This document shows positions 23,983-48,039 of a stretch of DNA of 64,000 bases, piece after piece. Source of the DNA: an uncultured virus (IMG/VR IMGVR_UViG_3300014913_000010) (Duplodnaviria > Heunggongvirae > Uroviricota > Caudoviricetes). How positions within the stretch are numbered: the first letter of the stretch is position 1; every line of letters begins with the position of its first letter. The stretch lies in the IMG/VR virus record IMGVR_UViG_3300014913_000010. One strand, 5' to 3'. The translations under genes were made by a program, and so were the position numbers. The notes below the pieces were generated by a model. That model had not been told where the DNA came from and did not search any database. It saw only the letters and a program-made list of their open reading frames with translations.

Positions 23983-24084
23983 AAAAAACCCCTTAAGGCC
24001 TTAGTGATGGAGACACACATTGACAAGACATAAAGGAGATAACTACTACGTAGTTTTTGTCTCCATCACTAAGGCCTTAAAGGG
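23983..24084 (-). terminator. Long terminator/attenuator hairpin in the initiator leader
   Basis: 23-bp perfect inverted repeat (23993-24015 / 24058-24080) followed by GGGGTTTTTT on the minus strand. Confidence 0.7.
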
Positions 24085-26155: not shown

Positions 26156-27510
26156 TTTTCCTTATAGTAGATGTTTAGTCGTTGTATGCAATGCTCTGCT
26201 AAGTATCTATATGGGTCAAGGAAGTCAATCAATTCAACACTATCTTTACCCTTGGCAGTACGGAATCCTCGGCCTATGGCCTGCAAAGTCATTACTTCCG
26301 ACTTACCGCCGCAGGCATTCAATACTACATCTAAAGAAGGTATGTTGATCCCCTCACGCCAGATCGTCGTGCTGATTACTACCTTTATTTTTTTATTCGA
26401 TAAGGCCATCTTTGTTTCTTTTCTTTGCTCCCCTTTTGTCGATCCCCAAATGAAAACGGATTTGATCTTTGACTTCTTTAGTAGGTCGTGTATGATATCG
26501 CCATGTTCTACTTCTTTTACCATGATCAATACCGACTTGCCGTTTGCTACCCGGTCGCCGGTCGCCTGTATGATCCTACCATTTCTTAGTCGGTTATTTA
26601 CTATGCCCTCCTTATATATATCCTTATACTTTCGATTGAGTGAAATTGATTGAGTTGTCGGGATAGGTATCATTGTGATTTTAGGAGTGGCAAGGAATCC
26701 ATCTTTAATACCATCTGTAGTGGAGTACTCACTCAATATCGGGCCTATGATCCCTTCTAATGCTAACTTATCTTTTGTCTTTTCGGGCAGGGTAGCAGTG
26801 AACCCTAACTTAACCGGAGCAATACAATGTTGTAATACTATACCAAATTGACTATCCCTGTCGTTTACGTGGTGGCATTCATCAACTATAATAGCGCCGA
26901 AGTAGTCCATATAGTTTTCGGGTGGTATCTTTGCGAATGATTGAATAGTAGCAAGTACTATATCAGCATCCTCATCGAACTCCTTTGACATACCGCCACC
27001 AATGATCTGCAAGCGCATTTCTGGCAAGTACTTTTTTGCTTCATCGGTCGTTTGTTGTAGTAGGTCTTTTGTGTGACACAGGAATAGTATACGGTAATCA
27101 CGGAAGACCGAACAGGCGGCAAGTACTATAATGGTCTTGCCACTGCCGGTAGGGGCTTTTACTACTCCCCTTTGCTTGGATAGGATTTCTTGTAGTGCGG
27201 TTTTTTGGTATGGGCGCAGGACTGCTTTCATGCTATACTTACTTGTCTGCACTTTTTCGATAGGGGATTTAGTTGTTTTGAATTTGATTTTGCGGTTAGT
27301 AAGAAAGGTTTGTACTCGTGGTAGTAGTCCGGTCAAGAATAAACCGGAGCGGCGATCAATAAAAGATCTGGTCTGGACTTTACTTTTAGTACCGAACCTT
27401 GCAGGCTGGAAATTTACGTCCTTATAAGATAAGGAGTTGTAAATTTCCAACCGTAAGGTTTTATCGGCACGGCAATGAACGGCGTCTAATATTTCGATTA
27501 TTGGTTTCAT
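26146..27510 (-). CDS. SF2 DEXH helicase (UvsW/XPB-like)
   Basis: LRPYQ, APTGSGKT, VDECHH, GFTAT, EGINIP, QAIGRGFR; probable leaderless start at 27510. Confidence 0.9.
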   Translation of the reverse strand: MKPIIEILDAVHCRADKTLRLEIYNSLSYKDVNFQPARFGTKSKVQTRSFIDRRSGLFLTGLLPRVQTFLTNRKIKFKTTKSPIEKVQTSKYSMKAVLRPYQKTALQEILSKQRGVVKAPTGSGKTIIVLAACSVFRDYRILFLCHTKDLLQQTTDEAKKYLPEMRLQIIGGGMSKEFDEDADIVLATIQSFAKIPPENYMDYFGAIIVDECHHVNDRDSQFGIVLQHCIAPVKLGFTATLPEKTKDKLALEGIIGPILSEYSTTDGIKDGFLATPKITMIPIPTTQSISLNRKYKDIYKEGIVNNRLRNGRIIQATGDRVANGKSVLIMVKEVEHGDIIHDLLKKSKIKSVFIWGSTKGEQRKETKMALSNKKIKVVISTTIWREGINIPSLDVVLNACGGKSEVMTLQAIGRGFRTAKGKDSVELIDFLDPYRYLAEHCIQRLNIYYKEKWI

Positions 27511-27516
27511 GCATTC

Positions 27517-27552
27517 ATTATACCACACTTTACCGGCAAATCGTTATTTAAT
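27517..27552 (-). promoter_or_regulatory. Phage promoter class (copy 3)
   Basis: CGATTTGCCggtaaAGTGTGGTATAAT. Confidence 0.7.
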
Positions 27553-27957
27553 TTTTTGCAGGTATTTTTCTACTTCTTCGAAGGTGCTTTTTACCTTCAA
27601 TCTACTTCTCCATTTTTTACGAAAGAACTTTCTTATATAATAAGAACGGTCTCCCTTAAATGCTCGGTAACGTCCATCCTTTGGGGATATACATGCATCC
27701 ACAAATTCTTTAGGGGCATTAAAAATGGTAGTTAGCACTTCTTTTGCATCGTCAGAAAGTTTTGAATATAAATCATTTTTTACCGCGCATTGCTCAGGGT
27801 TGGGCCGGTCGTCTGGTAAAAGATCATCGGTGCATTGAACGTACTCACCATAGATAATAACACAGGCTTGTACTATGTCTCCTTTTTTAGTTCGATCCCT
27901 TTTAGTAGTAGGTGTTTGTTTCAAATTTCTGATAGTAGACCTTTTCAATGTTCTCAT
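27544..27957 (-). CDS. Hypothetical protein
   Basis: AGGAGG RBS. Confidence 0.65.
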   Translation of the reverse strand: MRTLKRSTIRNLKQTPTTKRDRTKKGDIVQACVIIYGEYVQCTDDLLPDDRPNPEQCAVKNDLYSKLSDDAKEVLTTIFNAPKEFVDACISPKDGRYRAFKGDRSYYIRKFFRKKWRSRLKVKSTFEEVEKYLQKIK

Positions 27958-27960
27958 ATA

Positions 27961-28098
27961 TTAGCCTCCTATGCCGTAAGCATTGAACGCCCAATAGTAA
28001 CCAAAGCCCACTCCAAAAATAAAAACGATGAAGTACTTAGCGAATGCTAGAAATGCGGATTCAGTACTACTTCTAATTTCTAATTTTTCAAATGTCAT
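27961..28098 (-). CDS. Small membrane protein (45 aa, MTFEKLEIRS...AYGIGG)
   Basis: AAGGAGGACAAA-ATG RBS; one transmembrane-like segment. Confidence 0.6.
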   Translation of the reverse strand: MTFEKLEIRSSTESAFLAFAKYFIVFIFGVGFGYYWAFNAYGIGG

Positions 28099-28538
28099 TT
28101 TGTCCTCCTTTTTAGTATTCGTTTCTTTTTACTTGTTTTCTTCAATTTTTTTAGTACTCGTTTACTTTTTGGCTTGCGTTCTAACTTCTTTATTTTTGGG
28201 AGTTTAGCAGTTGTTTCTGCAAACCTGATAACTCGGTCTACTTGAAACATTTGACGTTTACAGTTATTGCACTTTAAATTAGTAAGTAATGATTCTCGTC
28301 TACTTTCACACTCATTGAGTGTCAGCCAGTAGTTATAAGTCTCGCACCAAAACCACTTTGATACCCGGAACCTTTTACAGGCCTTATTATCTGCGCCTAT
28401 CCACTTCTTTTTTCTTCGTGGGCATAGTCGTATTAACTTTTTTAAGTCCCGGTCTGATGCTTTCCTATACCAATAGCAGTACTTACAAAATAAAGTTGAG
28501 TACTTAACTTTAACGTCCTCCCGATCTAATTTTTTCAT
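28095..28538 (-). CDS. Cys-rich basic hypothetical protein
   Basis: GGAGGTAGT RBS; several CxxC; Lys-rich tail. Confidence 0.65.
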   Translation of the reverse strand: MKKLDREDVKVKYSTLFCKYCYWYRKASDRDLKKLIRLCPRRKKKWIGADNKACKRFRVSKWFWCETYNYWLTLNECESRRESLLTNLKCNNCKRQMFQVDRVIRFAETTAKLPKIKKLERKPKSKRVLKKLKKTSKKKRILKRRTK

Positions 28539-28579
28539 ACTACCTCCATTGTTAGTAGTTATTATTACTTACTAAGTTC

Positions 28580-28628
28580 AATCTCCAATGAGCCCTGCGA
28601 ACTTTCGCTCACAGGGCCGATGATGATT
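28580..28628 (-). repeat. Conserved intergenic RNA hairpin, copy 1 of 6
   Basis: AAUCAUCAUCGG-stem(GAAA loop)-CUCAUUGGAGAUU. Confidence 0.85.
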
Positions 28629-29610
28629 AAACTAGAACTACTTTTACTACCCTTACGAAGCAATTATCAAAGAAACCCCTTGCTACTTCTCGGTAGCAAA
28701 TATCCAACATCTTCTCGGCTTCTTCTTTTGTATCGTACTCATAAGGCTTCGCATCCTTACCGCTCGGCCTAATACTAAGCCACTTATGATTAGTATTAGG
28801 TGTTTTGATCTGCATCTGCCAACCCATATTACTACCTCCTAGTCGTCCATTTCTTTTACTATTTGATCTGCATAGCACTTACCGGCAATGAAGTTACACA
28901 CATCTCCAAGCATAATACGTTTCCACTTATCAGGAATGCCGTACCCTTCGGGTACTTCCTCAATGCATTCATGTTCAGTACTACCACACACCGGGCATAC
29001 ATCATAAATAAATCCCCAGTGGTTAGTACCGGTCTCCCGTTCGTTCTTGCAGTTAGTGCACTTATACGCTTTGTGTGAGTACTTACCTGTAACTGGTTTG
29101 CTTTTCATCGTCGTCACCTCCTATAATTGGCTTGCGAGTGAATGAGGTCTACTTCTAAATACCGGCTCCGATATATGAAAGTACCGGCCTTCTTTCTTAT
29201 CCAAGGCGTAGTACTCGGCATTGCTTTTTGATATCGGGCAAGCAATACATATATCTTTCTCATCAATCTTTTGTTCTACTAATGCAACCAACTCAGACAA
29301 TCTGCAGTGTGAGTTGTTTGTTGAATAGTAGTTCACGGCGGCACCTATAGAAACAAAGTAGTGAGTTCCAGTTACTAGTCTTCTGTTTACTAATGCCATT
29401 TTGTCCTCCTTCCTAAACAGTGTAGTAGTTGGGCAGAAACTTTACTACCCTAGAAGCGCGTTTAATTTCTAATTCGATCTCGCTCATCCGTCTTCTACAA
29501 GCCGGGTTTTTTCGACGGTCAACTACAATGAAGCAGTTGACTTTTCTGCGGTCGTTTTTACCCCGGTGCTCAGGATAATGAGTTACGGTAACACTTTTCC
29601 TCATGCTCAT
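28627..29610 (-). CDS. Four small early hypothetical proteins (28627-~28827, 28839-29117, 29121-29399, 29413-29610)
   Basis: ORF track; each preceded by a GGAGG RBS. Confidence 0.6.
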
Positions 29611-29653
29611 GATGTCCTCCTTTTGGTTTACTTACTTTTAACCACAATGGTTA

Positions 29654-29706
29654 AATCTCCAATGAGCCCCTTGAAGTACTACTACCTCAAGGGGCCGATG
29701 ATGATT
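29654..29706 (-). repeat. Conserved intergenic RNA hairpin, copy 2 of 6
   Basis: Same flanks; stem GGCCCCUUGAGGUA/UACUUCAAGGGGCU. Confidence 0.85.
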
Positions 29707-32342
29707 TAACTACTAATGATATTATTTGCGCTAGCCTTGACTTTCTTGGCAAATGCTGGACTCAATACCTTGCAAAGATTTTTAATAGTAGACCCTGCAA
29801 TTTCCTCAATGGTAGTAAATCCATTATCATACAGTTTGACTGCCCGAGCACCACCCACCTGATCAATTCTAGTGAGTACTGCTACTTCAGCAGACACACC
29901 GTACTTGACACGCTGGGGAAGTACTGCCCACATTGGTTTTTTCTGCCAGTGAGCATACTGCGAATCGATTAAAGACAACGCTTGATTGATCCGCTCAATA
30001 TCCCATGTTAACTGACGCTGAATACTTTTTAATGCATCCGGTACTTTCTTGCTTCCGGTAATAGCATGATACAACGCCATTGCACCGATTACTCCCTCAG
30101 TTGGCCTAATACCATAGTCGTAAATTAATCTACTACTAAAGTCGTCGGCTTCTCCTACTATCGGTTTAGGTATATAGCCCATGTTATTTGCTGGGATATC
30201 ACCTATTGCCCATGCTAGAAGTACTTCCTCATCAATGTTGCGGCCTTCGATATTAAACATCTTATCGAAATTCTGAAACCACTTATATACATCAACGGGA
30301 TTGAAGTACAGCCATGCACAAACTCGGCCTAGACCGGTAGGACTAATTCTAATACCGTCACCCTCGATCATTTCCATAGCGCTGTAGTTGTTTAAATGAT
30401 CTTCAGCCTCATCAATAGTCATAGGTGCAACTGACTGAAGGGAAGCTAAACTTCTACTATGCCATTCTACTAATGATCTACTATCTTGGATTGTTTTTGT
30501 TTCAATCTCCGCAATAGCATGAAAGTGAATGTACTTATCTAATACCGACTTGACCGGCCTAGGATTTTCGAACTTATTAATCCATTCGTGTTTACTATGT
30601 ACCGGAAGAAGTATTGACACAAAACCTTTATCATCAATACCATATCGCCCGGCACGTCCACACATCTGAATTATATCAAGTTCGTCTACTTCGTTTATAC
30701 CACGGTGGATTCCGACTACTACAACGTTACGGGCAGGCAAGTTGCGCCCCCATGCCAAGGTTGAAGTACTTACCAGCACCCTAATACCGTTGTGCCGGTC
30801 TTCAAATTTCTGTTCTACTTCCATCCGTTGTTCAACGTCAAGATCAGCATTATGAAAGAAGGCGTCTTCACCTTCCGTCTGTAATGCTTTGACAATACGC
30901 CTTCCCGTGCCTTTATCATGCACGAAAATTAAGTACTTTTCTTCTGGTTTACTCATTGCTATACCTATTGCTTTGTTCAACTTAATGGCTTGCGTTCCCC
31001 AGTAATCTTCCTGCCCACTTTCATAAGTGGCCGGTGTGTAGTCAATATAATTAATATCGAGTACTACCGGTCGCCATGTGGAATAAACTACTTCCGTTGC
31101 CTTATCATTTAATCGAGTTAGCCAAGTTGCCAACTCATCACAGTTCGGCATGGTAGCAGACAGAAATAGGATACGGGCTTTTTTGTTGATAGAAGTAAAC
31201 CTCATAATACCGGCTTCAACTGCATGACCGCGTTCAGTAGTTAGTATATGACTTTCGTCAACTACTACTAACCCGACTTGCTTCAACCAGAAGTTGTTCT
31301 CTGATTGCATACGTCGGGTACGTGAATCACACATCTCAGAAGTCATTACTATAATATTTGCTTCAGCAAGTTCAGCCTTCCGGGCTTCCGAAAGGGTGTA
31401 GTCGCCAGTTAGTATAGTAATGTTTTGATCATAGTACCGTTGTTTCCAGTCTATGTACTTCTCCTGAGTCAATGACTTCAGTGGTGAAAGGTAGATAACA
31501 CGTTTGCCCTTCGCCAGTACCGCATCCATAAGGAACTCCGCGCATATCGTTTTTCCAGCAGAAGTATTCGCGCCGATTACCATATTACAGTTCTTTTTGG
31601 CGTAAGGTAGTACTTCCGATTGCACCGGGTTAAATTCTTTAAACAAGTACTTATGCGGTTTATACGTTTTAGTTTTCACCAACTTACCGCTATACTCATT
31701 TACTACCGGTTCCACTGCTACCGCAATGGGATCTTCCACTACTACCGGTTCGGGTTCGGGAGTACTAACAACGTTATCTTCTTCAGCACTGTTGACCCAC
31801 TCATCCTTAAAATAAGGATCGGCCTTTAGTACTTTGGCTTCCATCGTCGGCTTGCCCTTTGGATTACTATCACCAAGTATCCACGTTAATTGCTTATCTG
31901 TCAGGTTACTTCTTTCTTCCAACTGCTCACGCAGGGAAGTACAAAAGTCCATCCAGTTCACAGCATCATGAGATAGTACAGCATGAACGTAATCGAAGTC
32001 GATTACTTCAATACCACCTACTTCCTCATTCAACTTAGTAATACGAGCATTGAGACGGTCGCCTATAGAAGTAGCGCCCTCAACACGAAGTATCTTTTTG
32101 CCCTTGCCTATAGGTCGGTTGTTTTCAGTATCCCAGTATACTACCCGAATGGCATCACTACCAATACGCCGAGAAGTATTAGTCCTAACATCTACAGTAC
32201 TATAAATACGGACTGATATACTGTCGATGATAGTCGGGACTTGATAAACAAATTCCTTGCAGTTCGGCACGTCTACTATAGCACGGTCTTCTGGCAAGTA
32301 GTCCTCGAACTGCTCTTTAGTCAAAGTCACGAAGTTACTCAT
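29706..32342 (-). CDS. Ski2/Hel308-like SF2 helicase with extra N-terminal domain and C-terminal HhH
   Basis: FNPVQ, ANTSAGKT, SPLKSL, VDESH, LSATM, STSTLAWGRNLPA, QMCGRAGR; RBS supports start at 32342. Confidence 0.85.
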   Translation of the reverse strand: MSNFVTLTKEQFEDYLPEDRAIVDVPNCKEFVYQVPTIIDSISVRIYSTVDVRTNTSRRIGSDAIRVVYWDTENNRPIGKGKKILRVEGATSIGDRLNARITKLNEEVGGIEVIDFDYVHAVLSHDAVNWMDFCTSLREQLEERSNLTDKQLTWILGDSNPKGKPTMEAKVLKADPYFKDEWVNSAEEDNVVSTPEPEPVVVEDPIAVAVEPVVNEYSGKLVKTKTYKPHKYLFKEFNPVQSEVLPYAKKNCNMVIGANTSAGKTICAEFLMDAVLAKGKRVIYLSPLKSLTQEKYIDWKQRYYDQNITILTGDYTLSEARKAELAEANIIVMTSEMCDSRTRRMQSENNFWLKQVGLVVVDESHILTTERGHAVEAGIMRFTSINKKARILFLSATMPNCDELATWLTRLNDKATEVVYSTWRPVVLDINYIDYTPATYESGQEDYWGTQAIKLNKAIGIAMSKPEEKYLIFVHDKGTGRRIVKALQTEGEDAFFHNADLDVEQRMEVEQKFEDRHNGIRVLVSTSTLAWGRNLPARNVVVVGIHRGINEVDELDIIQMCGRAGRYGIDDKGFVSILLPVHSKHEWINKFENPRPVKSVLDKYIHFHAIAEIETKTIQDSRSLVEWHSRSLASLQSVAPMTIDEAEDHLNNYSAMEMIEGDGIRISPTGLGRVCAWLYFNPVDVYKWFQNFDKMFNIEGRNIDEEVLLAWAIGDIPANNMGYIPKPIVGEADDFSSRLIYDYGIRPTEGVIGAMALYHAITGSKKVPDALKSIQRQLTWDIERINQALSLIDSQYAHWQKKPMWAVLPQRVKYGVSAEVAVLTRIDQVGGARAVKLYDNGFTTIEEIAGSTIKNLCKVLSPAFAKKVKASANNIISS

Positions 32343-32427
32343 TTTGTCCTCCTTATGTGGCAATAGCCACGTTAGTAATTAATACTACCTCCGTTAATAA
32401 CAACTACTACTACTACTTACGTAATTG

Positions 32428-32476
32428 AATCTCCAATAAGTCCCATGAACCGTAGCTCATGGAACCTATGATGATT
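32428..32476 (-). repeat. Conserved intergenic RNA hairpin, copy 3 of 6
   Basis: Stem GGUUCCAUGAGC-UACG-GUUCAUGGGACU. Confidence 0.8.
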
Positions 32477-32482
32477 CAAGTA

Positions 32483-32893
32483 CTACTCAAGATCGTCAAT
32501 CGTCTTGAATGATACTCGATGAAAGGTCTTAGTAGTTTTCACTGCTAGCCTTTCAAATCGCTCATCCCCGAGTACTCCCCTTGCTTTGGTGTTTGACACA
32601 TTCACCGAGTCAAGGAATTTCTTAGTAGATGCAACTGCTTTCTTGTACTTTCTAATATCAAGATCGAATGCATCAACGTCCTCAATTACTACCACTGCCC
32701 GGTTGTGTCCTCGGATAAGTGGTTTGTTGACTGACTCAGCATGACTTCTTAATTTTTCCTTTACTTCATTAAACCGAGCAGTCAAGTCCTTAATGTGTTC
32801 GCCCAACTGCTGACCTTCAGCAATTAATTCTTTTACGTTGCGAACACGCTTCAGCCGATTCAAGGTCTTTTTCTTTTTCTTAGGCATTGTCAT
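32483..32893 (-). CDS. Hypothetical protein
   Basis: AAGGAG RBS; basic N-terminus and coiled coil. Confidence 0.65.
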   Translation of the reverse strand: MTMPKKKKKTLNRLKRVRNVKELIAEGQQLGEHIKDLTARFNEVKEKLRSHAESVNKPLIRGHNRAVVVIEDVDAFDLDIRKYKKAVASTKKFLDSVNVSNTKARGVLGDERFERLAVKTTKTFHRVSFKTIDDLE

Positions 32894-33284
32894 TGTTTTC
32901 TCCTTTCCATTCTTCTACTACCGGTTTTTCTTCAAGGCTGATATGATTGACACGGCTAAAGAAGTAGGTGTATGCCTTCTTCTCATTAATCGTTACTACT
33001 TTCCGGTTATAAAGATTGTCTTTCCTTCCTTTTTTATAACCCTCAATAGCATCACACTGGCGAAGTACTTCTTTTATGTTGTTTACTTCCATAAGTTCAC
33101 CGATTACATAACTACCGTTGTCGCATTCAACCATTGCTGGGAAAGGCCCAAGGTCAATTATTTTGGCATTGTGAAGTATAGCCGTATCAACGTTTACTAC
33201 ATAGTGCTCCACTGCCGAGTATCTCACTTGACCTACCTTGAGCGTACCATAGACAAAGATTCTGCTGATTTTTTCCTCATTCAT
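32880..33284 (-). CDS. Gamma-glutamylcyclotransferase (AIG2-like)
   Basis: IFVYGTLK, GPFPAM, GELMEV, DAIEGY, LYNR, AYTY. Confidence 0.9.
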   Translation of the reverse strand: MNEEKISRIFVYGTLKVGQVRYSAVEHYVVNVDTAILHNAKIIDLGPFPAMVECDNGSYVIGELMEVNNIKEVLRQCDAIEGYKKGRKDNLYNRKVVTINEKKAYTYFFSRVNHISLEEKPVVEEWKGENNDNA

Positions 33285-33339
33285 TTTCTGTCCTCCGTTT
33301 GGTGTTTAGTACTACTACTACTTTCGACTATCGAAAGTT

Positions 33340-33392
33340 AATCTCCAATGAGCCCCACGAAGTATTACTACCTCGTGGGGCCGATGATGATT
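33340..33392 (-). repeat. Conserved intergenic RNA hairpin, copy 4 of 6
   Basis: Stem GGCCCCACGAGGUA-GUAA-UACUUCGUGGGGCU. Confidence 0.85.
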
Positions 33393-34026
33393 AACCATTC
33401 AATATATTACTAATTGCATCCTCATTCGGTCGTTGCCGTACTAACGTGTGCTGTTTGTGGTCAAGTTTGTTGTACTGCTTCGGGAATACTTTCTTGAAAA
33501 GATTGATTGACCACCTACACGTTTTCTTTTCATTTTTCCCGAGTGCATGACCGAACTCATGTAAAAAAGTAATAATGGAAAGGTTGCCCCTCATGGTAAT
33601 CGTATGACTACCGGGGGAATAACTACTACTATCTGACGGATTCATTTTAGTGTCCCTGATAATTGCATCCAGATCAATACCGTCGACTACTACCGTAGGC
33701 ACGGCAATGTCATACAAGGATGCAAGTTGCTCAGCGAGTACTATGAGACCATCGAGACGCATCTGATTCGTTTTACTACCCCACAACTTTAAGGACTTCC
33801 ATCCTTTCAGTGCCGGGATAACACCACGACGATACTTGATCTCATCGTCAAGTACTTCCTCAACTGTTTCCGGGTAGGCATTACTTTCCATCATTGCCGA
33901 TGTTATGTTAGTAATGTCACCACTACTTCTGCCCGTTCCGTTGTTGACTACAGATGTATTATCGTTACAACTACACTCATCCAAGTCGCCATTGCATTCA
34001 GAACATACATTCAGTTGATTACTCAT
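33391..34026 (-). CDS. Zincin-like metallopeptidase (HExxH)
   Basis: TFLHEFGHALG; AAGGAGGACAAAA-ATG RBS. Confidence 0.65.
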   Translation of the reverse strand: MSNQLNVCSECNGDLDECSCNDNTSVVNNGTGRSSGDITNITSAMMESNAYPETVEEVLDDEIKYRRGVIPALKGWKSLKLWGSKTNQMRLDGLIVLAEQLASLYDIAVPTVVVDGIDLDAIIRDTKMNPSDSSSYSPGSHTITMRGNLSIITFLHEFGHALGKNEKKTCRWSINLFKKVFPKQYNKLDHKQHTLVRQRPNEDAISNILNG

Positions 34027-34092
34027 TTTTGTCCTCCTTGTTGGTTTCCAGCCAACTGTTTATTGTTTACTACTATTTGGATCATCGTCTAC

Positions 34093-34148
34093 TGATTCTC
34101 CAATGAGCACTGCGAAGTGTACTACCTCGCAGTGCCGATGATGAATCA
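34093..34148 (-). repeat. Conserved intergenic RNA hairpin, copy 5 of 6
   Basis: Stem GGCACUGCGAGGU/ACUUCGCAGUGCU; basal stem changed compensatorily to UGAUUC/GAAUCA. Confidence 0.85.
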
Positions 34149-35576
34149 TTAAACATCAAACATACTATCTGGTCTACTAGCAGTATATTCTTGTTGTTCC
34201 TCGGTCTGTTCATTAGCACCGAGTGCGCCAAGGTTGTCTGGGTTACGTCTACCCTCAAACAATTGAGCACGTTGAATAAAATGCCGCAGTGCATCAAGTT
34301 GTTCGTCACTAAGTACTTCCATTTCAATCGTGACAGGATCGCTATTGTCGGTTGGTTCTACTACCGGCTCAACATCTGCCGGGGAGTCGTAACCTTCCGG
34401 TATAGTATCCATACCTAATGGGAATAACCGAAAACGCTTTCCAGTCTTTACTATATTGAAACCGAATCCCCACTTGAGATTCTTAAGGTTAGTCAATTGA
34501 CCACTAACCAATTTCAACTGCTTCCCACTTTCCAATCTACCGAAGTCCCGGTCGAGCATACTAACTATATCTTGCTTAGTACACCATTTGGAAATAAGTA
34601 TACGAATAATAGCGCCGGTTTTAATATCGGCTTTTGGTAGTCGTTGTTTTTTAGCATTGGGATGAATGAACTTTTCTTTAAAGTTAGTACATGCAATGCG
34701 CGACCGAGCCGACCGGATAAATTGCTGTTCGTAGTACTCGCCGGTAGTATTACCATCGTTATTAGTTCTGGAGGGTACTTGTTGACTAACTGCCTGACGA
34801 GCTTCAAAAGAAGTTCGTTTCAGCGAATCAACAAAATCTTGAAACCGTGAGCGATCATTAATTACTACACCGCCTTTAGTTGCAAGGTCAATCCATCGTT
34901 GAGTAATAAGAATCCAACTACTAATTTTTGCCCACTCGACTGTACCCGAATGCATACGAAACTCCAAAGTGTTTCGAATAGCATAGGACTTAAAATTCAA
35001 ACTACTTCTCCGTCCTAACTGATTACTATACCAGTCAAAAGGATTTTCGTCAGCCCTACACCTTCTTGTACCGTAATCAGACCACGGCTTGCAGTAGGTG
35101 TTGCTCAGTCGACTATCGGGCAATGCATAGAAGAAGTACTTCTCATCATTACGATATGCATTGACTACATTTCTAATAGTGTCAATCGTTTCCCCAGCCA
35201 TACCATGATGGACGTGCAGGCCGCAAGTCCTGCTTGCCGTAGCAAAAGGATTTCCGGTTCCATCATCTAAAGCATTGCAAACTACTTTTATGGCCTTCAT
35301 GCCTTCTACTCCCTTAAGAATAGGAGACACAATTTCCATGTTATGGGGAAACTGCCGACCCATTTGACTATTGAGTGTCATAACTGATCCATCTGGTTTG
35401 ATCTTCCATGTAGTAAAGTTGTCTTGAGCAGTGTCGTGACCGTACCGCCTAGTGACTACTACATCATGGTTGATCATGTTATCAGCAAAGTACTGCCGTA
35501 ATCTATCGGCAATCCTTTCCTCACTAACCGTGGCATGGCATTCAATCTCCAGTCCAATAGTTCTGTCCTCATTCAT
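34149..35576 (-). CDS. Putative amidoligase (COOH-NH2 ligase) enzyme
   Basis: TIGLEIE, W.IKPDGS, EIVSPIL, CGLHVH, SLNF, TLEFR.HSGT. Confidence 0.85.
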   Translation of the reverse strand: MNEDRTIGLEIECHATVSEERIADRLRQYFADNMINHDVVVTRRYGHDTAQDNFTTWKIKPDGSVMTLNSQMGRQFPHNMEIVSPILKGVEGMKAIKVVCNALDDGTGNPFATASRTCGLHVHHGMAGETIDTIRNVVNAYRNDEKYFFYALPDSRLSNTYCKPWSDYGTRRCRADENPFDWYSNQLGRRSSLNFKSYAIRNTLEFRMHSGTVEWAKISSWILITQRWIDLATKGGVVINDRSRFQDFVDSLKRTSFEARQAVSQQVPSRTNNDGNTTGEYYEQQFIRSARSRIACTNFKEKFIHPNAKKQRLPKADIKTGAIIRILISKWCTKQDIVSMLDRDFGRLESGKQLKLVSGQLTNLKNLKWGFGFNIVKTGKRFRLFPLGMDTIPEGYDSPADVEPVVEPTDNSDPVTIEMEVLSDEQLDALRHFIQRAQLFEGRRNPDNLGALGANEQTEEQQEYTASRPDSMFDV

Positions 35577-35658
35577 GCTGTCCTCCATTTCGCCGGTAGT
35601 AATACCGGCAAGTTAGTAGTTATTAATATTTCGTCTCCATTTATTATACACTACTTTT

Positions 35659-35713
35659 AATCTCCAATGAGTACTGCGAAAGTATTACTACCCTCGCAGT
35701 ACCGATGATGATT
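35659..35713 (-). repeat. Conserved intergenic RNA hairpin, copy 6 of 6
   Basis: Stem GGUACUGCGAGGGUA-GUAA-UACUUUCGCAGUACU. Confidence 0.85.
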
Positions 35714-35717
35714 AAAA

Positions 35718-36626
35718 TTAGTCACCGTAAGAAACTCGTTTAGGTGGTGGATTACCTAAAGCGGTTGCCGGTGCAGGATAACCTCGACGACCGTAGTAAC
35801 TATCTACTATATTGTTATAAAAGGCCTCATCCGAGTCCTCAGGATCGTCGTGATTTACTTCCCTAGTTACTACTACCGGCTCAGGGTCTTCTTCGTAACG
35901 TCCAAGGTTCGTAAACTCCATCGTTTCAACGTCTACCATGTAGTAGTGCAATGGCTTAGTGAAAAACGATTTTATTTTCTTAACCTGAACACTAGTAATA
36001 CCGGCCTTGTTAGTATACCGTAAAGCATCCTGCACAATTTGCTTAGTGCTACAAAATATCCGGACTCCTAATGAGTCCCGAAGGTCTACTACACACATAG
36101 GCCGGGATGAGTCACGTGCAAAAAGTACTACATTTTCAATGAAGTTCACTGCTATCATTGAGTAGCTTTGAACCGCATTAAGTAGTTCTTTAGTGAACCC
36201 TACTTTTTCAACGCATCGAAAAAAGGCTTCGGTATCACTACCACTTTTTATTTTCGATTTTACCCGATGCAATTTAGCAAGGTCAAACGCATCATGCATA
36301 GTACCGTTATGTACTATAGCCCACTCATCACCTACGAAAGGCTGAGTGTTTAATACGTTTACTTCACCCATACTAGCGTTACGATTATGACCGACGAACA
36401 GGCGACAATTCCGGTTTACTATTGCATCCTTGAAGTAGTCGCTTTGTTCCATGAACTCACTTGCCTTGATTGCTGATTTCTCCGTAAGTAGTTCGCTATC
36501 ACTAATAGCAAAGAACCCGGTTCCATCAGTACCACGAGTTTCTGAAACTACGGCAAGTACTTTCATAAACTTAGCAAGTACTTTCGGATCTTTCGGATTG
36601 CCTACATAACCATAAATTCCACACAT
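35718..36626 (-). CDS. Class II (Ntn) glutamine amidotransferase
   Basis: True start MCGIYG after AAGGAGG; RGTDGTG, GHNR.AS, NTQPF, HNG, DTE. Confidence 0.9.
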   Translation of the reverse strand: MCGIYGYVGNPKDPKVLAKFMKVLAVVSETRGTDGTGFFAISDSELLTEKSAIKASEFMEQSDYFKDAIVNRNCRLFVGHNRNASMGEVNVLNTQPFVGDEWAIVHNGTMHDAFDLAKLHRVKSKIKSGSDTEAFFRCVEKVGFTKELLNAVQSYSMIAVNFIENVVLFARDSSRPMCVVDLRDSLGVRIFCSTKQIVQDALRYTNKAGITSVQVKKIKSFFTKPLHYYMVDVETMEFTNLGRYEEDPEPVVVTREVNHDDPEDSDEAFYNNIVDSYYGRRGYPAPATALGNPPPKRVSYGD

Positions 36627-36822
36627 ATTATCCTCCTTTGGTAGTCCTCCAAGACTACCGGTTAAATTAACTACATTATCTTTACTACTTCTTTCAGATC
36701 GCCTTAAATGATCTGTTCCGCTCTCATCCCTCATAATTGTAAGTATTTAAGCAATTCACTTATTTACTTAATCATGGGATGAAACCATAACACATGATTT
36801 AAGGCAGTGGTAGTAACAAGAC

Positions 36823-37225
36823 CTAACGTGATCGTCGTAGTCGTCGGAGTCGACGATTTACTAACTTTTGTTTTTCACGATTTTTATTATGATAATGACA
36901 CACATCTAATTTAATTGTTTTAGTATAGCACATTGAATATGAGTAAACAAGATTTTTTGCTCCCCAGTTTCTAACGTGCGGTACTTTTTTAATCGGACTA
37001 CTTTTGTCGGGAATAGTCATAACTGGACTATTGCAATATCTACATATTTTCATCATTGTTAGCTCCCTTTACTATATCAATATCAATACCACGAAAAGTT
37101 TCATTATCTATTTGATAGTAGTTCGTCCAATTAGCATGGCTTTTTCCGATGGAGTCGTCGTGCTGATAAAAGCTAATGAAGCAATAGTGTTTATTGTTCA
37201 TTTCCATAAATGTAAAAGTATCCAT
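36823..37225 (-). CDS. Two small early proteins (36823-37056; 37040-37225, starting MDTFTF)
   Basis: GGAG RBSs; first ORFs downstream of the long leader. Confidence 0.55.
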
Positions 37226-37239
37226 TTTAGTACTCCTTA

Positions 37240-38167
37240 TAGTTAGGTTATAACAGGACGGTAGTTGTTTGCTTTTCCTAGGACTTTTATTATGCCTAGT
37301 ACTATTGAGGGACAACTACCACCCCAAGTTACAACGGCGTACAATCAATGGATTGACCAATTCTTTTCCTAGGACTTAATAGGCGCCTAGTACTATCGTT
37401 TCAAAAGGTCGCACCATATCATATACAACCGTGGGATTTATAGGGCTGACTTTCGTCTTTCCCACCGCCTCGGCTCTACTACCTGCGGATCTACTATAGT
37501 TGTCAACTTTTCCTAGGACTTAATATGCCTAGTACTATTGTGACGTGCTTTTCGATACCGGTACTACTAATGTTTTCACTCGCCTGCCGTCCCAAGGAGA
37601 TTTGGAGGATGGGTTATGAACTAAACCACCGGAGGAGGTGGATTTACTATGTCCTAACGGGTTTTATTGGTAGCACTAATCGTTTATAGTGCAATCGGCG
37701 CACCGGACGCCTACCAAAGTCGGGAGTGTCAATTAGTATTTCGGATTTGAACCGTCCAACCTTTCGGTAGTAGTTTTCTCATGGTGTGTTTGATCCATTA
37801 TCTATACCGGCGGTAATAGTTGGCATATACCGCACGTGGCGAATTTTGTTTCATTAAAGTTTTACTACCACGATTAAATATTAAGGAATATTTTAATTAC
37901 CATTCAATTAGTAGTTGACCCTGAGTCATTTATTTTTCGTTTTGACTTCGCCCTAGCAAGTTCGCCCGAAGGCAAAAAGTAGGAGTCAATCGCATCCATC
38001 GGATTTTTTCGAGTGCCGTTTCCCACGGCCCCCAAGGTCTACTAATTGTGTGAGCATGGCGCGTGAGGTCAACCGGTATCGAGGGTAGTACTAACGATGG
38101 TGCTGGTAGTAGTTGCCCCCGGTCCTAGTGACCCCCGGTGTTGCCGTGCTCGATATGTCAAAGAACT
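37240..38167 (-). ncRNA. Candidate large structured RNA / 5' leader of the early operon
   Basis: ORF-free, many stems with UUCG/GAAA tetraloops, long-range complementarity, three repeated modules. Confidence 0.65.
38156..38166 (-). promoter_or_regulatory. boxA-like antitermination element
   Basis: GTTCTTTGACA just downstream of the promoter; resembles boxA (GCTCTTTAACA). Confidence 0.45.
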
Positions 38168-38172
38168 GATTA

Positions 38173-38201
38173 AAAGTAACATTTTCAGTGTGTTATGTCA
38201 A
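38173..38201 (-). promoter_or_regulatory. Sigma70-type early promoter
   Basis: TTGACA-17 bp-(TG-n)TACTTT with AT-rich upstream sequence. Confidence 0.65.
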
Positions 38202-38219
38202 CATTTATTTTCATACCGG

Positions 38220-38533
38220 TCTAGATCGCCTTATATATAGGCCAAAAAACGTAATGATTTCATGGTGTTACGGGAGTTAAAATTATTTTCAAAATAATGC
38301 GCTTTTTTTCGCCTTATAACCTATTGGATTTATTGATAAAAATAGGCCCAAAATAGGCTAAAAAACCGTGTATTTTCGGGGAGTTATAACCCATAAATCC
38401 GGGAGATCCCCTCAAATTACCACAAAGTGGTATAAAAACGACCTAAAAAACGGACTACTACCAAAATAGGCGAAAATAGGCCATTTTTGCCATATGCCGG
38501 GAAACCGGGCAAATTGGACTACTAATAGGTCTA
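38220..38533. repeat. Non-coding region with short A-tract repeats (AAAATAGGC, CGGGA, TTATAACC)
   Basis: AAAATAGGC at about 38339, 38350, 38463 and 38473, with partial copies at about 38237 and 38525. Confidence 0.55.
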
Positions 38534-38758
38534 CTAATATTTGATTGATTCAGATAGGATATCGACAGGATTATAAGTAGAAGTAGGGGAAGGACAACTA
38601 TAATCTAACCACTCCACTAATTGGGAGTACTCATTTAAGTGGCAACCGATTATATGGTCTACTAATCGATTATAGTTGTCCTTATACCTACCATCTTTTA
38701 GTCGTCGAAATTTAGGCAGGACATATTTGCAGTACTTACATTGATAGACGAATGCCAC
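38534..38758 (-). CDS. Small C2H2-like Zn-finger protein
   Basis: CKYC...HIIGCH; GGAGG RBS, GTG start. Confidence 0.55.
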   Translation of the reverse strand: MAFVYQCKYCKYVLPKFRRLKDGRYKDNYNRLVDHIIGCHLNEYSQLVEWLDYSCPSPTSTYNPVDILSESIKY

Positions 38759-38761
38759 CTA

Positions 38762-39424
38762 CTAATCCTCTTCCCACTCATCTTCTTCTTCATCGTTGTC
38801 GTCAAATTCATCTGGAATTTCTTCCTCGCCTATATGGTTTAGATTACTTCCCTTTTCTATATCACTTGCTTTCCATCCATCGTTTACTAATTCTATACAT
38901 CGGGAGCAGTAGTCGTCAGTGATATCAAATCTTTCCGAATGGAGTGAGCAGTACCACATATCAGGATCGTGAGCATTACCATCATGCCGCCAGAAGTTCT
39001 CCCGGTAGTCATCCCACGGATCTACTTCCTCATTTATTTTGTATTCATACTTATCAATACGATCAAAATGATCTACTACCTCCGCTAAGGTATGGAATAC
39101 CGGGATACCCAACTCCTCACACCTTTTAAGTTCAGCCATTACTCCGGTAGATGTTTTCTCCCCTGATATCACGAGGGCGCACTCAGAAACATCGAGCCAT
39201 GCTAAAGTATTTTCGTAGTAGTCATTAATACCTAATTCTACTCCATCACGCCGCATCAACGTAAAATGGTAATCAAACCACGGCACAAACGGCGCAAACC
39301 CTGCGGCTAGTACTTCTACGCCTATTTGCATCCCTGACCGCATATTTTCCAGTACACCTAAAACGTTATCGGATGAATAACAACCGAGTATTGCAACCCG
39401 GTGACGTTTACTTACTACTGCCAT
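38762..39424 (-). CDS. DUF4406/nucleoside deoxyribosyltransferase-like fold protein with acidic tail
   Basis: PFVP, LAWLDVSEC, STGVMAE...A/C..LGIPVF pattern. Confidence 0.5.
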   Translation of the reverse strand: MAVVSKRHRVAILGCYSSDNVLGVLENMRSGMQIGVEVLAAGFAPFVPWFDYHFTLMRRDGVELGINDYYENTLAWLDVSECALVISGEKTSTGVMAELKRCEELGIPVFHTLAEVVDHFDRIDKYEYKINEEVDPWDDYRENFWRHDGNAHDPDMWYCSLHSERFDITDDYCSRCIELVNDGWKASDIEKGSNLNHIGEEEIPDEFDDNDEEEDEWEED

Positions 39425-39637
39425 TAGTAGTCTCCTTTCTTAATAGTTTAATAAGTCCTATTTCCGTTCATTTCCTCAATACATGAGTCCGCTTTATTAT
39501 TAAGCATTACTTATCTCCTTTATCAGAAAGAAAATGGCCTACCAGTAAGCCAAAGAATATACTTACTGATAGACCTATCAATAATACCAATACCACATTG
39601 ATAATCCAATGAACTATATTTGATAGAAAGTCAATCA

Positions 39638-40979
39638 TTACTTTACTTTCTTTTTAATGCAACGGTGAACCCGGATATTATCGGGAGTGGTTCCGTCCTT
39701 TTTCTCATATGCTACACCACTTACTACTATATTTGAAAGACCTTTCTTGAATCCATCGAAAGCAGTCTTTGCGGCGGCAGGAGAAGTCCACTGTCGGTCA
39801 CTCCGCACTACTACTTGCTTGTTGACTAAGAACTTCCAACGCCACAGACCACTTTTAGCAACCTGATAGATTACCAGAAACCGGCGACCATCAAACTTCA
39901 TGTTGCCTATACTATCTTTCTGTACTTCATCCCCTTCCTTCAATACGGGTTTCCTCACTACTGCTTTTCCTCGTTTCATAACTATCTCCCTTATTTATTG
40001 TTTACCACTCATATGTACTCCCCCATCGGAAGTACTCCAAAAATCTGCACTGGCATAAGCCACTCGAGTATTAAGCAATGAGCACTTGGTTTCCATAAGT
40101 TCGCATAGTTGCTCAATATCATGACTACTTAACTTTTTCATATTATGGAACCGTTGAATAGTTTTATCGATGCACGCTAAGTCCTTATCAATACCAGCAA
40201 GTAAATCATGGATAGTATCATTACCCATTACTACCTCCTATATAACTATCTTAATATTAGTAGTCGCCTTGACTATATCAACAATACCACCGGAATGGTG
40301 AGACAACAAACTGACTTCTACTTTCTCCATTATGAATCCATGCTCCAATAGATCCTCAGCAAGCATATCAAGCATTTCATCAATACTACCTTCAATGCCT
40401 TTAACTATCTCCTTTGCCTTAGTTGCATTCATCTACTAATCTCCTTTAATAGTAATGCGATTACCTTTCTTATATATGACAACAGGACGATTAAGCAATA
40501 CATCATCCACTAAGTAGTTATACACCTTTACAGTACCATCGGCAAAGTACAACTCCGTATGCTTATGCCGCACCGGAGCACTTGCTAAACTCCCAGCCGC
40601 AACCCGAACAACATACTTTACATCTACTATAGTACCGGTCATTACTATCTTTGGTGTAGGCGGTATATAATTCAACCGCTCCCTAAAAGCCATGAGACCA
40701 ACTAATATAATTAATACGAACACACCAATACTCATCCAGTGGTGAAACTCAAGACGACGACGACTACTCATTCTTATCTCCTTTACTATAATTAGTAAAC
40801 GCAATCGGTGCAACTGCTTTACAATCACAACATACTAATTCTAATATCTCAGTAAAGTCAGGAGCATCTACTTTCATCTGCCACTTATCACAACCGCACG
40901 GACACCGTAACCAATACGACCAGTTCAATGAAGTAACATTACTACTCCTCATCTCATCTCCCATACTACTCCTCATCAA
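39638..40979 (-). CDS. Cluster of small hypothetical proteins (39638-39979, 39995-40228, 40238-40432, 40436-~40771, 40764-~40964)
   Basis: ORF track; each with a GGAG(G)TAGT-type RBS. Confidence 0.6.
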
Positions 40980-41065
40980 ATAAAATAAAGGGTAAACATA
41001 ATATTCAACCGGTACTCATCAATACGACTGGAAACCCTTACTATTTAAGGATTTATCATGAATGT

Positions 41066-41100
41066 ATTATATCACACTTTACCGTCATATCGAGAATTAA
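41066..41100 (-). promoter_or_regulatory. Phage promoter class (copy 4, variant)
   Basis: CGATATGACggtaaAGTGTGATATAAT at the divergence point. Confidence 0.6.
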
Positions 41101-41138
41101 TTATTTTTATTTAGTTTTTTAAAAAAGACTGGTAAGAT

Positions 41139-41906
41139 ATGTGCATGAGACGATTAAAAAGAAGGAAATTAAATAGGATTAAAAATAAAGTACAGATCAA
41201 CAGCAAACCCACTCGGAGTGAGCGAAGACAAGGGAAGTACTTCGGTCGTTCTGATGAGGGTAGTAGTGGTGATACTTTCAAAAAGAAGAAACTAACACGA
41301 TTACAACAGCGTATGATTGATGAGTATATGAAGGACTTTAATGGCTTTAGGGCATACAAAGCTGCTGGAGGAAAAGGTGAGGGAGCAACGGGCCGTGCTT
41401 GCACCGCGCAGATCCTATGTTACTCCCATGTCCAGAAGGAGATACGGCAACGCCAGACCATACTAAGAGAGCAGTCGGGTGTTGAAACGCTCGATGTAGT
41501 AAGAGAGTTAATGAGGATTGCCTTTGCCGATATGAAGGACTACGCCCAGTGGTCTTCCGGCACGGTAGTACTAAAAGATTCTGAAGAACTCGACCCAAGC
41601 CTATCATGCGCTGTAAGTGAAGTAGTCGAAACCCCCGGTAAACTTGGTAGTACTATTAAGATCAAACTCCATCCTAAAATCCAAGCACTCAAGATGCTTG
41701 GTGAGCACCTTAACTTATTTGGAAAAGTAGAGCCTGATAATGAAACAATAGAAGAGAAGGCCCAGAAGATCCGAGCGGCAGTCAACGGTATCTTTACTTC
41801 TGTTCCTATTACGGATGAAGGTAGTAATGAAACAACTTCAACAGTGATTCCATTAAAAGGAAAAAAAGGAGGAAGTAAAGATGGGAAAAATGAAAAAAAG
41901 AAGTAG
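41139..41906 (+). CDS. Terminase small subunit
   Basis: LT..Q..MIDEYMKDFN..RAY..AG, VVRELMRIAF, KIKLHPKIQALKMLGEHL. Confidence 0.85.
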   Translation: MCMRRLKRRKLNRIKNKVQINSKPTRSERRQGKYFGRSDEGSSGDTFKKKKLTRLQQRMIDEYMKDFNGFRAYKAAGGKGEGATGRACTAQILCYSHVQKEIRQRQTILREQSGVETLDVVRELMRIAFADMKDYAQWSSGTVVLKDSEELDPSLSCAVSEVVETPGKLGSTIKIKLHPKIQALKMLGEHLNLFGKVEPDNETIEEKAQKIRAAVNGIFTSVPITDEGSNETTSTVIPLKGKKGGSKDGKNEKKK

Positions 41907-42198
41907 TGGAAGAAAGCAGTCTATTACTCCAAAACAAAAGTCAGCCCGTAGGAAAAATATGGCAATAGCAAGAGCCGCAAGAAGTAATTACTCAAAGGCC
42001 CATGATGTAATAAGGGGAGTGGGTAGGAAAGCAACTACTTTAGGTGGCAAGAACTTCCTCGAAGCAAGTAAAGCCGGTTCGTCAAGGTATGGAGGGAAGA
42101 AGTTCTATACTATGGGGCACACCCGGAGAATCACGTCAGGGTTGAAAAAGGCTGGAGTTGCATTTAAGAGAAAAGGAACATTAATTCACGTCTTATAA
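41881..42198 (+). CDS. Small basic protein, paralog 1 (ITPKQKSARRKNMAIAR)
   Basis: AGGAGG RBS; shared motif. Confidence 0.7.
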   Translation: MGKMKKRSSGRKQSITPKQKSARRKNMAIARAARSNYSKAHDVIRGVGRKATTLGGKNFLEASKAGSSRYGGKKFYTMGHTRRITSGLKKAGVAFKRKGTLIHVL

Positions 42199-47925: not shown

Positions 47926-48039
47926 ATGGCTGCAAAAAAGAAGTGTCCAGGCGGTAAGATTAAATCAAAAGGTAAAGGGCGAGGACTTGGAACTGGCAAG
48001 GGCAAAGGCCCAATAAACAAAAGGAAGAAAAAGAAGTAA
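47926..48039 (+). CDS. 37-aa Lys/Gly-rich peptide (MAAKKKCPGGKIKSKGKGRG...)
   Basis: AAGGAG RBS; fills the intergenic gap exactly. Confidence 0.6.
   Translation: MAAKKKCPGGKIKSKGKGRGLGTGKGKGPINKRKKKK

Follow-up and report, generated by a model that had tools for sequence, protein, structure and literature searches.

In the early operon of phage T7, cleavage of the message by RNase III at intercistronic sites is established, and the early RNA of SP82 reportedly carries repeated RNase III hairpins of similar sequence, with a purine run downstream of the cut that is said to stabilise the downstream RNA. Here, we analyse a family of six intergenic RNA hairpins in a 64,000-nucleotide stretch of DNA from an uncultured virus of the Caudoviricetes (IMG/VR record IMGVR_UViG_3300014913_000010), hereafter called the window, which an original prediction made from the sequence alone had described as punctuating an early operon. 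We find that the hairpins are maintained by selection at the RNA level and in a strand-specific manner, and we propose, tentatively and with somewhat less than even confidence, that by analogy with the T7 sites they are specific to this lineage, serve to process and stabilise the message between cistrons, and are probably cut by RNase III.

The T7 early precursor, ~7000 nt long, contains five RNase III signals (PMC3867540). Substrates of E. coli RNase III typically comprise two helical turns (~20-22 bp or more), loops, bulges or mismatches at the target limit the enzyme to one strand, and the 3' hairpin that is left protects against exonucleases (PMC1540722, PMC3867540). The ESAS elements of Cluster K mycobacteriophages are imperfect inverted repeats with a variable spacer that lie between non-structural genes in one orientation, with 17-bp arms located just upstream of a 13-bp start-associated sequence (SAS) at the start codon; they are conserved across related phages and are described as being of unknown function (PMC3203893). 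In T4-type phages, PeSLs are composite terminator/promoter motifs that mediate modular shuffling (PMC4122927).

The window elements resemble ESAS elements in being conserved inverted repeats that recur in one orientation between non-structural genes of related phages. They differ in that they adjoin stop codons, with the next start 35-85 nt away, and in their greater length and invariant internal loop, a comparison made by position, with the SAS 13-mer itself not searched for. They are like PeSLs in being short conserved stem-loops between variable accessory genes and in being tied to gene gain and loss (PMC4122927; PMC2839356), and differ from them in having no promoter- or terminator-like signal alongside.

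Results

Six Intercistronic Hairpins on the Coding Strand

As had been predicted, there are six copies, all on the minus (coding) strand: the pattern TCATCATMGG-N20-34-CTYATTGGAGA matches the window six times (Table 1), compared to 0 matches in each of 100 dinucleotide shuffles. The full element is ~65 nt long once the basal stem is included; the predicted starts do mark the 3' end of the conserved core to within 2-4 nt, but the full elements are longer, and the last copy extends 6 nt beyond the predicted end at 35713, to 35719. Every copy is predicted to form one hairpin, with a minimum free energy (MFE) of -33.4 to -40.1 kcal/mol on 71-77 nt and a folding z-score between -7.0 and -9.0, and 0/200 shuffles fold as well in 6/6 copies. 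A covariance model of the family (R1), run over the whole window with filters off, finds exactly these six, with scores of 70.9-86.1 bits, the best unrelated match in the window reaching 12 bits (E 2.9).

The placement of the hairpins at or just after a stop codon and before the next ribosome-binding site was also correctly foreseen. In 6/6 copies the stop codon is located inside or against the 5' basal stem, which means that the terminating ribosome must melt the basal stem, and the next start codon follows ~35-85 nt downstream, via an A/C-rich leader and always with a strong GGAGGA-type ribosome site. Second, small and unrelated hairpins are present in some leaders on the same strand (35592-35609, 32357-32370, ~34041-34057 and ~29630-29646), between the main hairpin and the next ribosome site (e.g., GCCGGUA-UUAC-UACCGGC and GUGGC-UAUU-GCCAC); these may act as a shield for the 5' end of the downstream message.

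An Invariant Central Module within a Covarying Helix

To the six window copies can be added eight from a syntenic relative, G002 (see below), giving 14 copies in all. Read from its base, the element starts with a basal stem that has 8 pairs in the model and is often longer by 1-3 (8-11 bp), above which there is an A-A mismatch (C-A in two G002 copies), followed by three invariant pairs (U-G, C-G and A-U) and a 2x3 internal loop in which UC of the 5' strand faces CAU of the 3' strand. The upper stem, 12-15 bp long, begins with invariant G-U and G-C pairs and covaries freely in the rest, apart from a mostly conserved closing segment, GAG/(U/C)UC; the apex, as read from the folds, is a GNRA or UNCG tetraloop in 9/14 copies. 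In the model, the helix is quasi-continuous over ~25-30 bp with a distortion at its centre, there being 12 positions below the loop (8 pairs, one mismatch and 3 pairs) and 12-15 pairs above it. GTAGTA-type words, overrepresented in the window as a whole (see below), also take up the apices of the hairpins and the bases that immediately follow most of them.

Across the 14 copies the central module, UCAUcGG / CUcAUUGGAG, is invariant bar one paired exception, and 18 columns do not vary at all (12-15 and 17-18 on the 5' side, 49, 50 and 52-58 on the 3' side, and three others). The exception is copy 4, which alone has a changed core, AUCAUAGG / CUUAUUGG, and where a double change (C to A and C to U) in the internal loop gives an A-U pair in place of C opposite C; the original prediction needs correcting on this copy.

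Covariation is seen in two alignments. In a MAFFT alignment of eight copies, made blind to structure, 98.9% of 184 cells are paired and 10/23 pairs have changed on both sides, a level of covariation reached by 0/500 shuffles. In the alignment of all 14 copies, which is fitted to the model and hence leans towards structure, 98.1% of 322 cells are paired and 14/23 pairs show compensatory changes, compared to 29.5-47.2% paired cells in slid controls. The upper-stem pairs quoted in the original prediction are all present in the alignment, as are its GAAA, GUAA and UACG loops and the AAUC/GAUU versus AUUC/GAAU covariation in the basal stem. Its further claim, that G-U pairs fix the strand, holds for most copies: there are 2-6 G-U pairs per copy, three G-U pairs are invariant or near-invariant among the 14 copies, and the sense strand is the more stable one in 11/14, but in 3/14 the two strands are about equal. 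In a relative that is ~85-90% identical and known only as contig differences (run X6), one base is missing in each upper-stem arm of copy 1 (at 35681 and 35691), i.e., one pair has been lost, and the other listed indels are insertions in the apex of copy 4.

The likeness of orthologous copies is 0.68, compared to 0.70 among copies within the window and 0.75 within G002. Because orthologues are no more alike than paralogues, either the copies exchange sequence or the free positions are saturated, with the core held fixed. We propose that the within-genome uniformity reflects common descent together with gene conversion among copies and selection on loop-proximal bases.

Comparison with the T7 Early Operon

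In T7, each of the five intergenic regions of the early operon, which we take to be the RNase III sites R0.3, R0.5, R1, R1.1 and R1.3, folds into a hairpin with an upper stem of 9-13 bp, an internal loop and a lower stem. Three of the regions are nearly identical loop-proximally on both strands, the fourth is a close variant and the fifth is looser, and the apices differ. In both systems, related intercistronic hairpins recur along one co-directional early array, two helices flank an internal loop, the loop-proximal sequence is conserved and the apex variable, and there is no U-tail. Their density is similar as well (five per ~7 kb in T7 and six per 7.1 kb in the window; G002 has eight per 8.8 kb). 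They differ in that there is no sequence similarity between the T7 and window families, in that the stems are longer in the window (12-15 bp plus ~12 bp, compared to 9-13 bp plus 4-9 bp in T7) and the hairpins much more stable, and in that the window loop is smaller than that in T7, being 2x3 with a separate 1x1 mismatch, and the stop codon lies inside the basal stem. Cleavage has been shown for T7; for the window hairpins it is suggested by this analogy.

Promoters, Terminators and Known RNA Families

Over the whole window, there are 0 matches to the 4227 Rfam families at gathering score, and when 28400-38600 is searched at E<=5 the copies are hit by two microRNA-precursor models only, with 26.8 and 20.4 bits (thresholds 65 and 90). 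There is no U-tract after any of the 14 copies, in agreement with the lack of a U-tail noted originally, and the 16 terminator-like sites in 27000-41200 all fall outside the copies, which is not what one expects of intrinsic terminators. No sigma-70-like promoter is found beside the copies, and the region as a whole has 26 promoter-like sites, compared to 36.8 expected from shuffles; one 9-of-12 promoter-like match overlaps copy 4, and there is none downstream of any copy.

Three other identities were considered and rejected. A promoter function was discarded given that promoter-like sites are fewer than in shuffles and none accompanies the copies. The consensus boxes of integron attC sites, GTTRRRY/RYYYAAC, fit two of the copies, but they do not match the remaining ones, and the basal stem shows covariation. 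A stimulator of stop-codon readthrough or frameshifting was rejected on the ground that the frame closes within a few codons of the stop (as judged by eye in one copy).

Conservation in a Syntenic Relative

G002 is 83,017 bp long with terminal repeats, is syntenic with the window and encodes proteins 29-88% identical to those of the window. Its eight copies are all on the coding strand within 8.8 kb, six of them at junctions orthologous to the six in the window (Table 1); one of the two extra copies is accompanied by extra small open reading frames (ORFs). At 36767-36804 (minus strand), where G002 has a full extra copy, the window has a weak hairpin, UUAAAUCAUG...CAUGAUUAAG (-9.3 kcal/mol, z -1.2), possibly a decayed seventh copy of which the basal stem alone is kept. 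Another record, G001, is a 13.4-kb fragment that is identical to the window and outside which the hairpin region falls.

A Narrowly Distributed Family and a Shared Scaffold

A blastn search with 28100-36000 against the phage collection gave no match. The capsid protein is nearest to the capsids of actinobacterial phages (35-37% identity), and both the capsid and the helicase protein have only distant matches among cultured phages, so that no host is assigned. A scan of viral contigs for the invariant core returned 78 stretches, eight of which are the G002 copies; two of the 70 others score above chance, L017 (35.8 bits) and L086 (24.6 bits), each with a single copy right after a stop codon in an unrelated record, and these two are possible outliers of doubtful membership. 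Single hairpins with the same invariant core are seen directly after a stop codon in two unrelated viral records, L091 (1501-1558, plus strand) and L092 (1501-1556, minus strand); in L091, which has 66% G+C, the 3'-strand GGAGG is 7 nt before an ATG and could be a ribosome site. The metagenome contigs and the prokaryote genomes (one per species) gave at least 120 stretches each, and among the 80 listed loci scored in either set the best had 18.1 and 20.7 bits, respectively, i.e., chance level.

A query with the helicase found G002 and the locus L224, the latter without the motif (best model score 14.1 bits). The capsid query found a clade of 70 loci, and in the 25 longest records of this clade (7 of them >= 90% complete, with 45 loci unsearched) R1 has 0 matches at E<=0.01. 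As judged from these sequence searches, the distribution of the hairpin family is narrow, comprising the window phage, G002 and close variants.

Other members of the clade have hairpins of their own in this region. The sister phage G009 (86.9 kb), whose capsid and helicase are 84% and 57% identical to those of the window, has at least 10 copies of a hairpin of different sequence (type B) in the equivalent region, over ~9.4 kb (L415 7861-17310, plus strand). Its junctions consist of a stop codon, the hairpin, an A/C-rich leader and a strong ribosome site, and the hairpin has a 9-bp lower stem, a 1x1 mismatch, 2 bp, a second 1x1 mismatch, a covarying upper stem of 11-12 bp and a short loop. Both families thus have the same type of junction and the same succession of lower stem, mismatch, 2-3 bp, mismatch or loop, and ~12-bp covarying upper stem, whereas the conserved sequence of type B, GGCUUUGAGCC-C-CA-C ... 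U-UG-U-GGGCUCAAAA, is unrelated to that of the window family, and R1 does not detect it. The G009 family reads GGRGGCUUUGAGCCYCCAC-stem-UUGUGGGCUCAAAA, and its extra 5' GGRGGC can pair with GCCYCC to give a competing small hairpin that is the MFE form in 3/10 copies, which suggests two alternative folds. It should be noted that our description of the G009 family is based on individual folds, as MAFFT misaligns its shorter upper stems. Since G009 has the same layout with a different sequence, we argue that the requirement is for a shape and not for one given sequence.

In L224, where the helicase is 47% identical, the equivalent region has three copies of an ordinary element consisting of a hairpin plus a U-tract; the same record has ~28 tandem copies of a 15-nt unit inside a 290-aa ORF (8354-8968), and at this locus GGCAGGAGAAATCCTGYCYTTTGT followed by AGATGTCAACCA occurs three times. 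G008 (at ~18.1, 22.1 and 22.8 kb) and G010 (at ~5.5, 9.1 and 12.8 kb) each have three copies of a two-hairpin element in which CCTCATCAG is followed by a variable hairpin, AGA, a G+C-rich 9-bp hairpin and TTTCGG (UUUCGG in RNA). The start of this element, UCAUCAGUAC, bears some likeness to UCAUCGGUAC, the 5' core of the window hairpins. In G011, G012 and G013, no hairpin family was picked up by a scan that is insensitive, in that it also failed to cluster the window's own copies, these being too diverged for its BLAST step. Punctuation of this gene block by a private hairpin family is thus a recurring habit of the clade, with the scaffold being shared where the sequence differs.

Discussion

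In structural terms, the idea that the hairpins are processing or stabilising sites, put forward in the original prediction, stands up well: they are strand-specific, covarying and intercistronic, and are without terminator tail or promoter (in 6/6 copies, all on the sense strand). With 23 pairs in the model and another 1-3 at the apex of each copy, they provide the two helical turns of double-stranded RNA typical of RNase III substrates; the 2x3 loop and the 1x1 mismatch are modelled in mid-helix in 14/14 copies, with support from covariation; and, as in a family of related sites, the loop-proximal columns are invariant while the middle and the apex covary. The other half of the idea, cleavage, is proposed by analogy with T7.

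In the mechanism that we envisage, the hairpins would act as cis-acting RNA elements in a long polycistronic message from a block of accessory, probably early, genes, the early status of the block being suggested by gene order and its transcription as a single unit being presumed. With the terminating ribosome gone and the hairpin folded, the host RNase III, which is specific for double-stranded RNA, would bind the two helical turns that flank the central loop, and the loop would direct it to cut one strand only, most likely the invariant 3' strand around CAU/UGG. The upper hairpin would then stay on the upstream message and block 3' exonucleases, while the downstream message would start a few bases before the invariant GGAG, which, in the most speculative step, could recruit a 30S subunit and protect the newly made 5' end. 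In this way the long transcript would be divided, as in the early operon of T7, into mono- or dicistronic messages whose stabilities are set one by one. On the 3' strand, the invariant GGAG is also reminiscent of the purine run, similar to a ribosome site, that is reported for SP82.

A number of observations weigh against this proposal. RNase III needs little sequence, and among the 18 fixed columns are two G-U wobbles that are one mutation away from G-C, and G58 is kept even when its partner becomes U or G; such depth of conservation points to base-specific recognition beyond the known requirements of RNase III. The window hairpins exceed the T7 regions in length and, by far, in stability (-33 to -40 kcal/mol and z -7 to -9, compared to -21.6 to -26.2 kcal/mol and z -1.7 to -3.6 for T7), their internal loop is smaller than that of T7, and the suggested role of GGAG fails for the G009 family, whose 3' strand is without GGAG. 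In addition, the T7 record used does not annotate the folded regions as RNase III sites. Finally, an arrangement of two loops around a short helix, in the form of a bulge-helix-bulge motif, is described as allowing E. coli RNase III to bind without cutting (PMC1540722).

The original prediction also named a specific protein-binding motif as an alternative, and the depth of conservation would be accounted for if the invariant central module were bound or cut by a dedicated sequence-specific protein, most likely an unannotated small protein from the block, that processes the message or controls the translation or stability of its neighbours and co-evolves with its site. We consider this unlikely, although it is a serious alternative and the one to which we give most weight. 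It would fit not only with the 18 invariant columns, wobble pairs included, and with the 3' strand AUUGGAG being kept where its partner varies, but also with the confinement of the family to two phages and close variants (0 matches in 25 other capsid-clade records), with the different conserved sequence on the same scaffold in G009, and with the fact that nearly all block genes are likewise specific to the window phage and G002, several of them being small zinc-ribbon-like ORFs. Against it, scans of 67 of the 89 window ORFs with Pfam, of 23 window ORFs with PHROGs and of 34 G002 ORFs outside the parts covered by the window brought up no phage RNA polymerase, RNase III or RegB and no other recognisable domain for binding or cutting RNA; the loop change in copy 4 is a paired one that retains the geometry but not the bases; uniformity of the copies could also result from gene conversion among them; and the T7 RNase III sites are comparably conserved near the loop without a dedicated protein. 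A more specific version, in which the module is the address of an unrecognised phage endoribonuclease or RNA-binding regulator that punctuates the operon and co-evolves with its site, we regard as doubtful, and place below the passive elements discussed next. Its logic is comparable to that of Cas6 with CRISPR repeats and of T4 RegB with GGAG, and with a private pair of protein and site it would be expected that the window phage and G002 share one sequence, that G009 has a different one on that scaffold, and that other clade members have none.

Hairpins that are never cut could also serve as passive stability or insulation elements that block 3' exonucleases or scanning endonucleases, or as leaky terminators without a tail, such that segments of the operon decay independently, in the manner of the REP palindromes that act as stability elements in E. 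coli operons; we rank this after the dedicated protein, as likewise improbable. The very stable stems with GNRA/UNCG tetraloops right after stop codons speak for such a role, as do the hairpin-plus-U-tract elements of L224 and the two-hairpin UUUCGG elements of G008 and G010, in that relatives may use real terminators here. However, a barrier needs neither an invariant internal loop nor invariant wobbles, and the missing U-tract argues against termination at any of the 14 copies. We think it decidedly improbable that the repeats matter mainly as DNA, either as PeSL-like recombination sites for the gain, loss or exchange of cassettes or as a spreading selfish palindrome. The repeats do bound genes that vary between relatives, G002 has its two extra copies, one with extra small ORFs, the likeness within genomes is at least that between orthologues, implying recombination among copies, and PeSLs are described as mediating modular shuffling (PMC4122927). 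Yet the G-U pairs and RNA-type tetraloops favour a role in the transcript, six junctions are kept between phages ~35% apart in protein sequence and hence have not been reached by recent spread, no promoter part was found, and recombination would be a side effect that leaves the compensatory changes unexplained. The suggestion of a self-cleaving motif, also made at the outset, has not fared well: a small ribozyme is scarcely credible, although ribozymes are common in phage DNA and the invariant internal loop with its conserved flanking helix might be taken for one, given that Rfam has no ribozyme match (neither at gathering score in the window nor at E<=5 over 28400-38600, where the two sub-threshold microRNA-precursor models are the only hits) and that a single unbranched hairpin with a 2x3 loop is simpler than the known ribozyme classes and has none of their tertiary elements.

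If processing by RNase III is what the hairpins are for, they would represent an independent case of a phage that splits a long early message into separately stabilised pieces by means of a private hairpin family, in an uncultured marine-sediment clade far from T7. This would not amount to a new kind of biology; the main value lies in the clean covariation and in the comparison of two families on one scaffold between sister phages, whose different sequences could show which features the processing machinery reads. The family also provides a well-covarying RNA motif, so far uncatalogued, that is represented by 14 copies and for which a working covariance model is available, and compact hairpins of such stability are possible insulators for synthetic operons.

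The Gene Block and Other Features of the Window

The window represents most of an uncultured tailed phage of ~83 kb or more, and public DNA runs that contain this phage come from sediment and marine metagenomes. Structural genes are found on the plus strand from 41139, and replication, nucleotide-metabolism and accessory genes on the minus strand from ~40979 down to 1433; there are 0 tRNA genes in the window. The co-directional block with the hairpins is detailed in Table 1. Among the relatives compared, its genes, except for the helicase gene, are common to the window phage and G002 only, and several of its ORFs are small, zinc-ribbon-like and without an assigned family.

Table 1. Hairpin copies and genes of the hairpin-bearing block (window coordinates; CM, score with covariance model R1; GATase-II, class-II glutamine amidotransferase)
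Feature	Position	Strand	Core-pattern match	Orthologue in G002	Folding and CM score	Context
Hairpin copy 1	35653..35719	-	35661-35711	47957-48021	-34.6 kcal/mol, z -8.2; 78.0 bits	Directly 3' of the GATase-II-like gene stop; 15-pair upper stem; apical loop GUAA
Hairpin copy 2	34089..34152	-	34097-34144	46340-46399	-34.9 kcal/mol, z -7.0; 77.7 bits	Amidoligase stop codon within 5' basal stem; basal-stem variant GAUUC/GAAUC
Hairpin copy 3	33334..33398	-	33342-33390	45690-45753	-40.1 kcal/mol, z -9.0; 86.1 bits	Stop of the 211-aa HExxH ORF within basal stem; apical loop GUAA
Hairpin copy 4	32422..32482	-	32430-32474	44797-44861	-33.4 kcal/mol, z -8.6; 70.9 bits	Directly 3' of the 136-aa ORF stop; UACG tetraloop
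Hairpin copy 5	29648..29712	-	29656-29704	42025-42089	-35.5 kcal/mol, z -7.2; 86.0 bits	Helicase stop codon within basal stem
Hairpin copy 6	28574..28634	-	28582-28626	40211-40275	-33.9 kcal/mol, z -7.4; 77.2 bits	83-aa ORF stop within basal stem; GAAA tetraloop; final copy ahead of tightly packed replication genes
Co-directional block	28095..36734	-				Hairpins at six junctions; based on ORFs, Pfam, PHROGs and gene sharing
GATase-II-like gene	35718-36734	-				First in block
Amidoligase gene	34149-35588	-				Second in block
211-aa ORF	33391-34026	-				HExxH motif
136-aa ORF	32483-32893	-				Overlapped by GGACT cyclotransferase gene
878-aa Hel308/Ski2-like helicase gene	29706-32342	-				
Four small ORFs, then 147-aa ORF		-				3' of helicase; end of block; includes 83-aa ORF (28627-28878)

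The genes for the amidoligase, the GATase-II-like protein, the HExxH protein and the GGACT cyclotransferase are adjacent (32880-36734, minus strand), with a hairpin between each, and the whole set is found only in the window and G002 among the relatives compared. This combination suggests the making or trimming of a gamma-glutamyl-type peptide or modification.

Words of the (A)GTAGTA / TACTAC(T) / AGTACT type are 5.6-6.8 times more frequent in the whole window than expected from base composition, and GGTAGTA 12.8 times, on both strands, in both window halves and in every frame that avoids an in-frame TAG. The excess is weaker in G002 (2-5 times) and is not seen in other clade members, G009 being nearly without these words (AGTACT 0 vs 19 expected, GTAGTA 2 vs 27). 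The pattern is like that of a signal acting in the DNA, or of a bias related to restriction or modification.

Upstream of the hairpin block there is a 1.3-kb segment without ORFs (37250-38530, minus strand), which has three copies of ATAGTACTAGGC..(A)AGTCCTAGGAAAAG (~37507-37538, 37363-37396 and 37272-37306), five copies of GCCTATTTT (~38240-38482), several TTGACA hexamers and a part rich in G+C. No Rfam match above chance was obtained for this segment, which is possibly a control region, an origin or a non-coding RNA. Finally, a perfect 23-bp inverted repeat (TTAAGGCCTTAGTGATGGAGACA...) with a spacer of ~40 nt and a predicted stability of -42.6 kcal/mol is located at 23992-24081, in the 323-nt gap between the genes at 23873 and 24196, and is a candidate origin or regulatory site.

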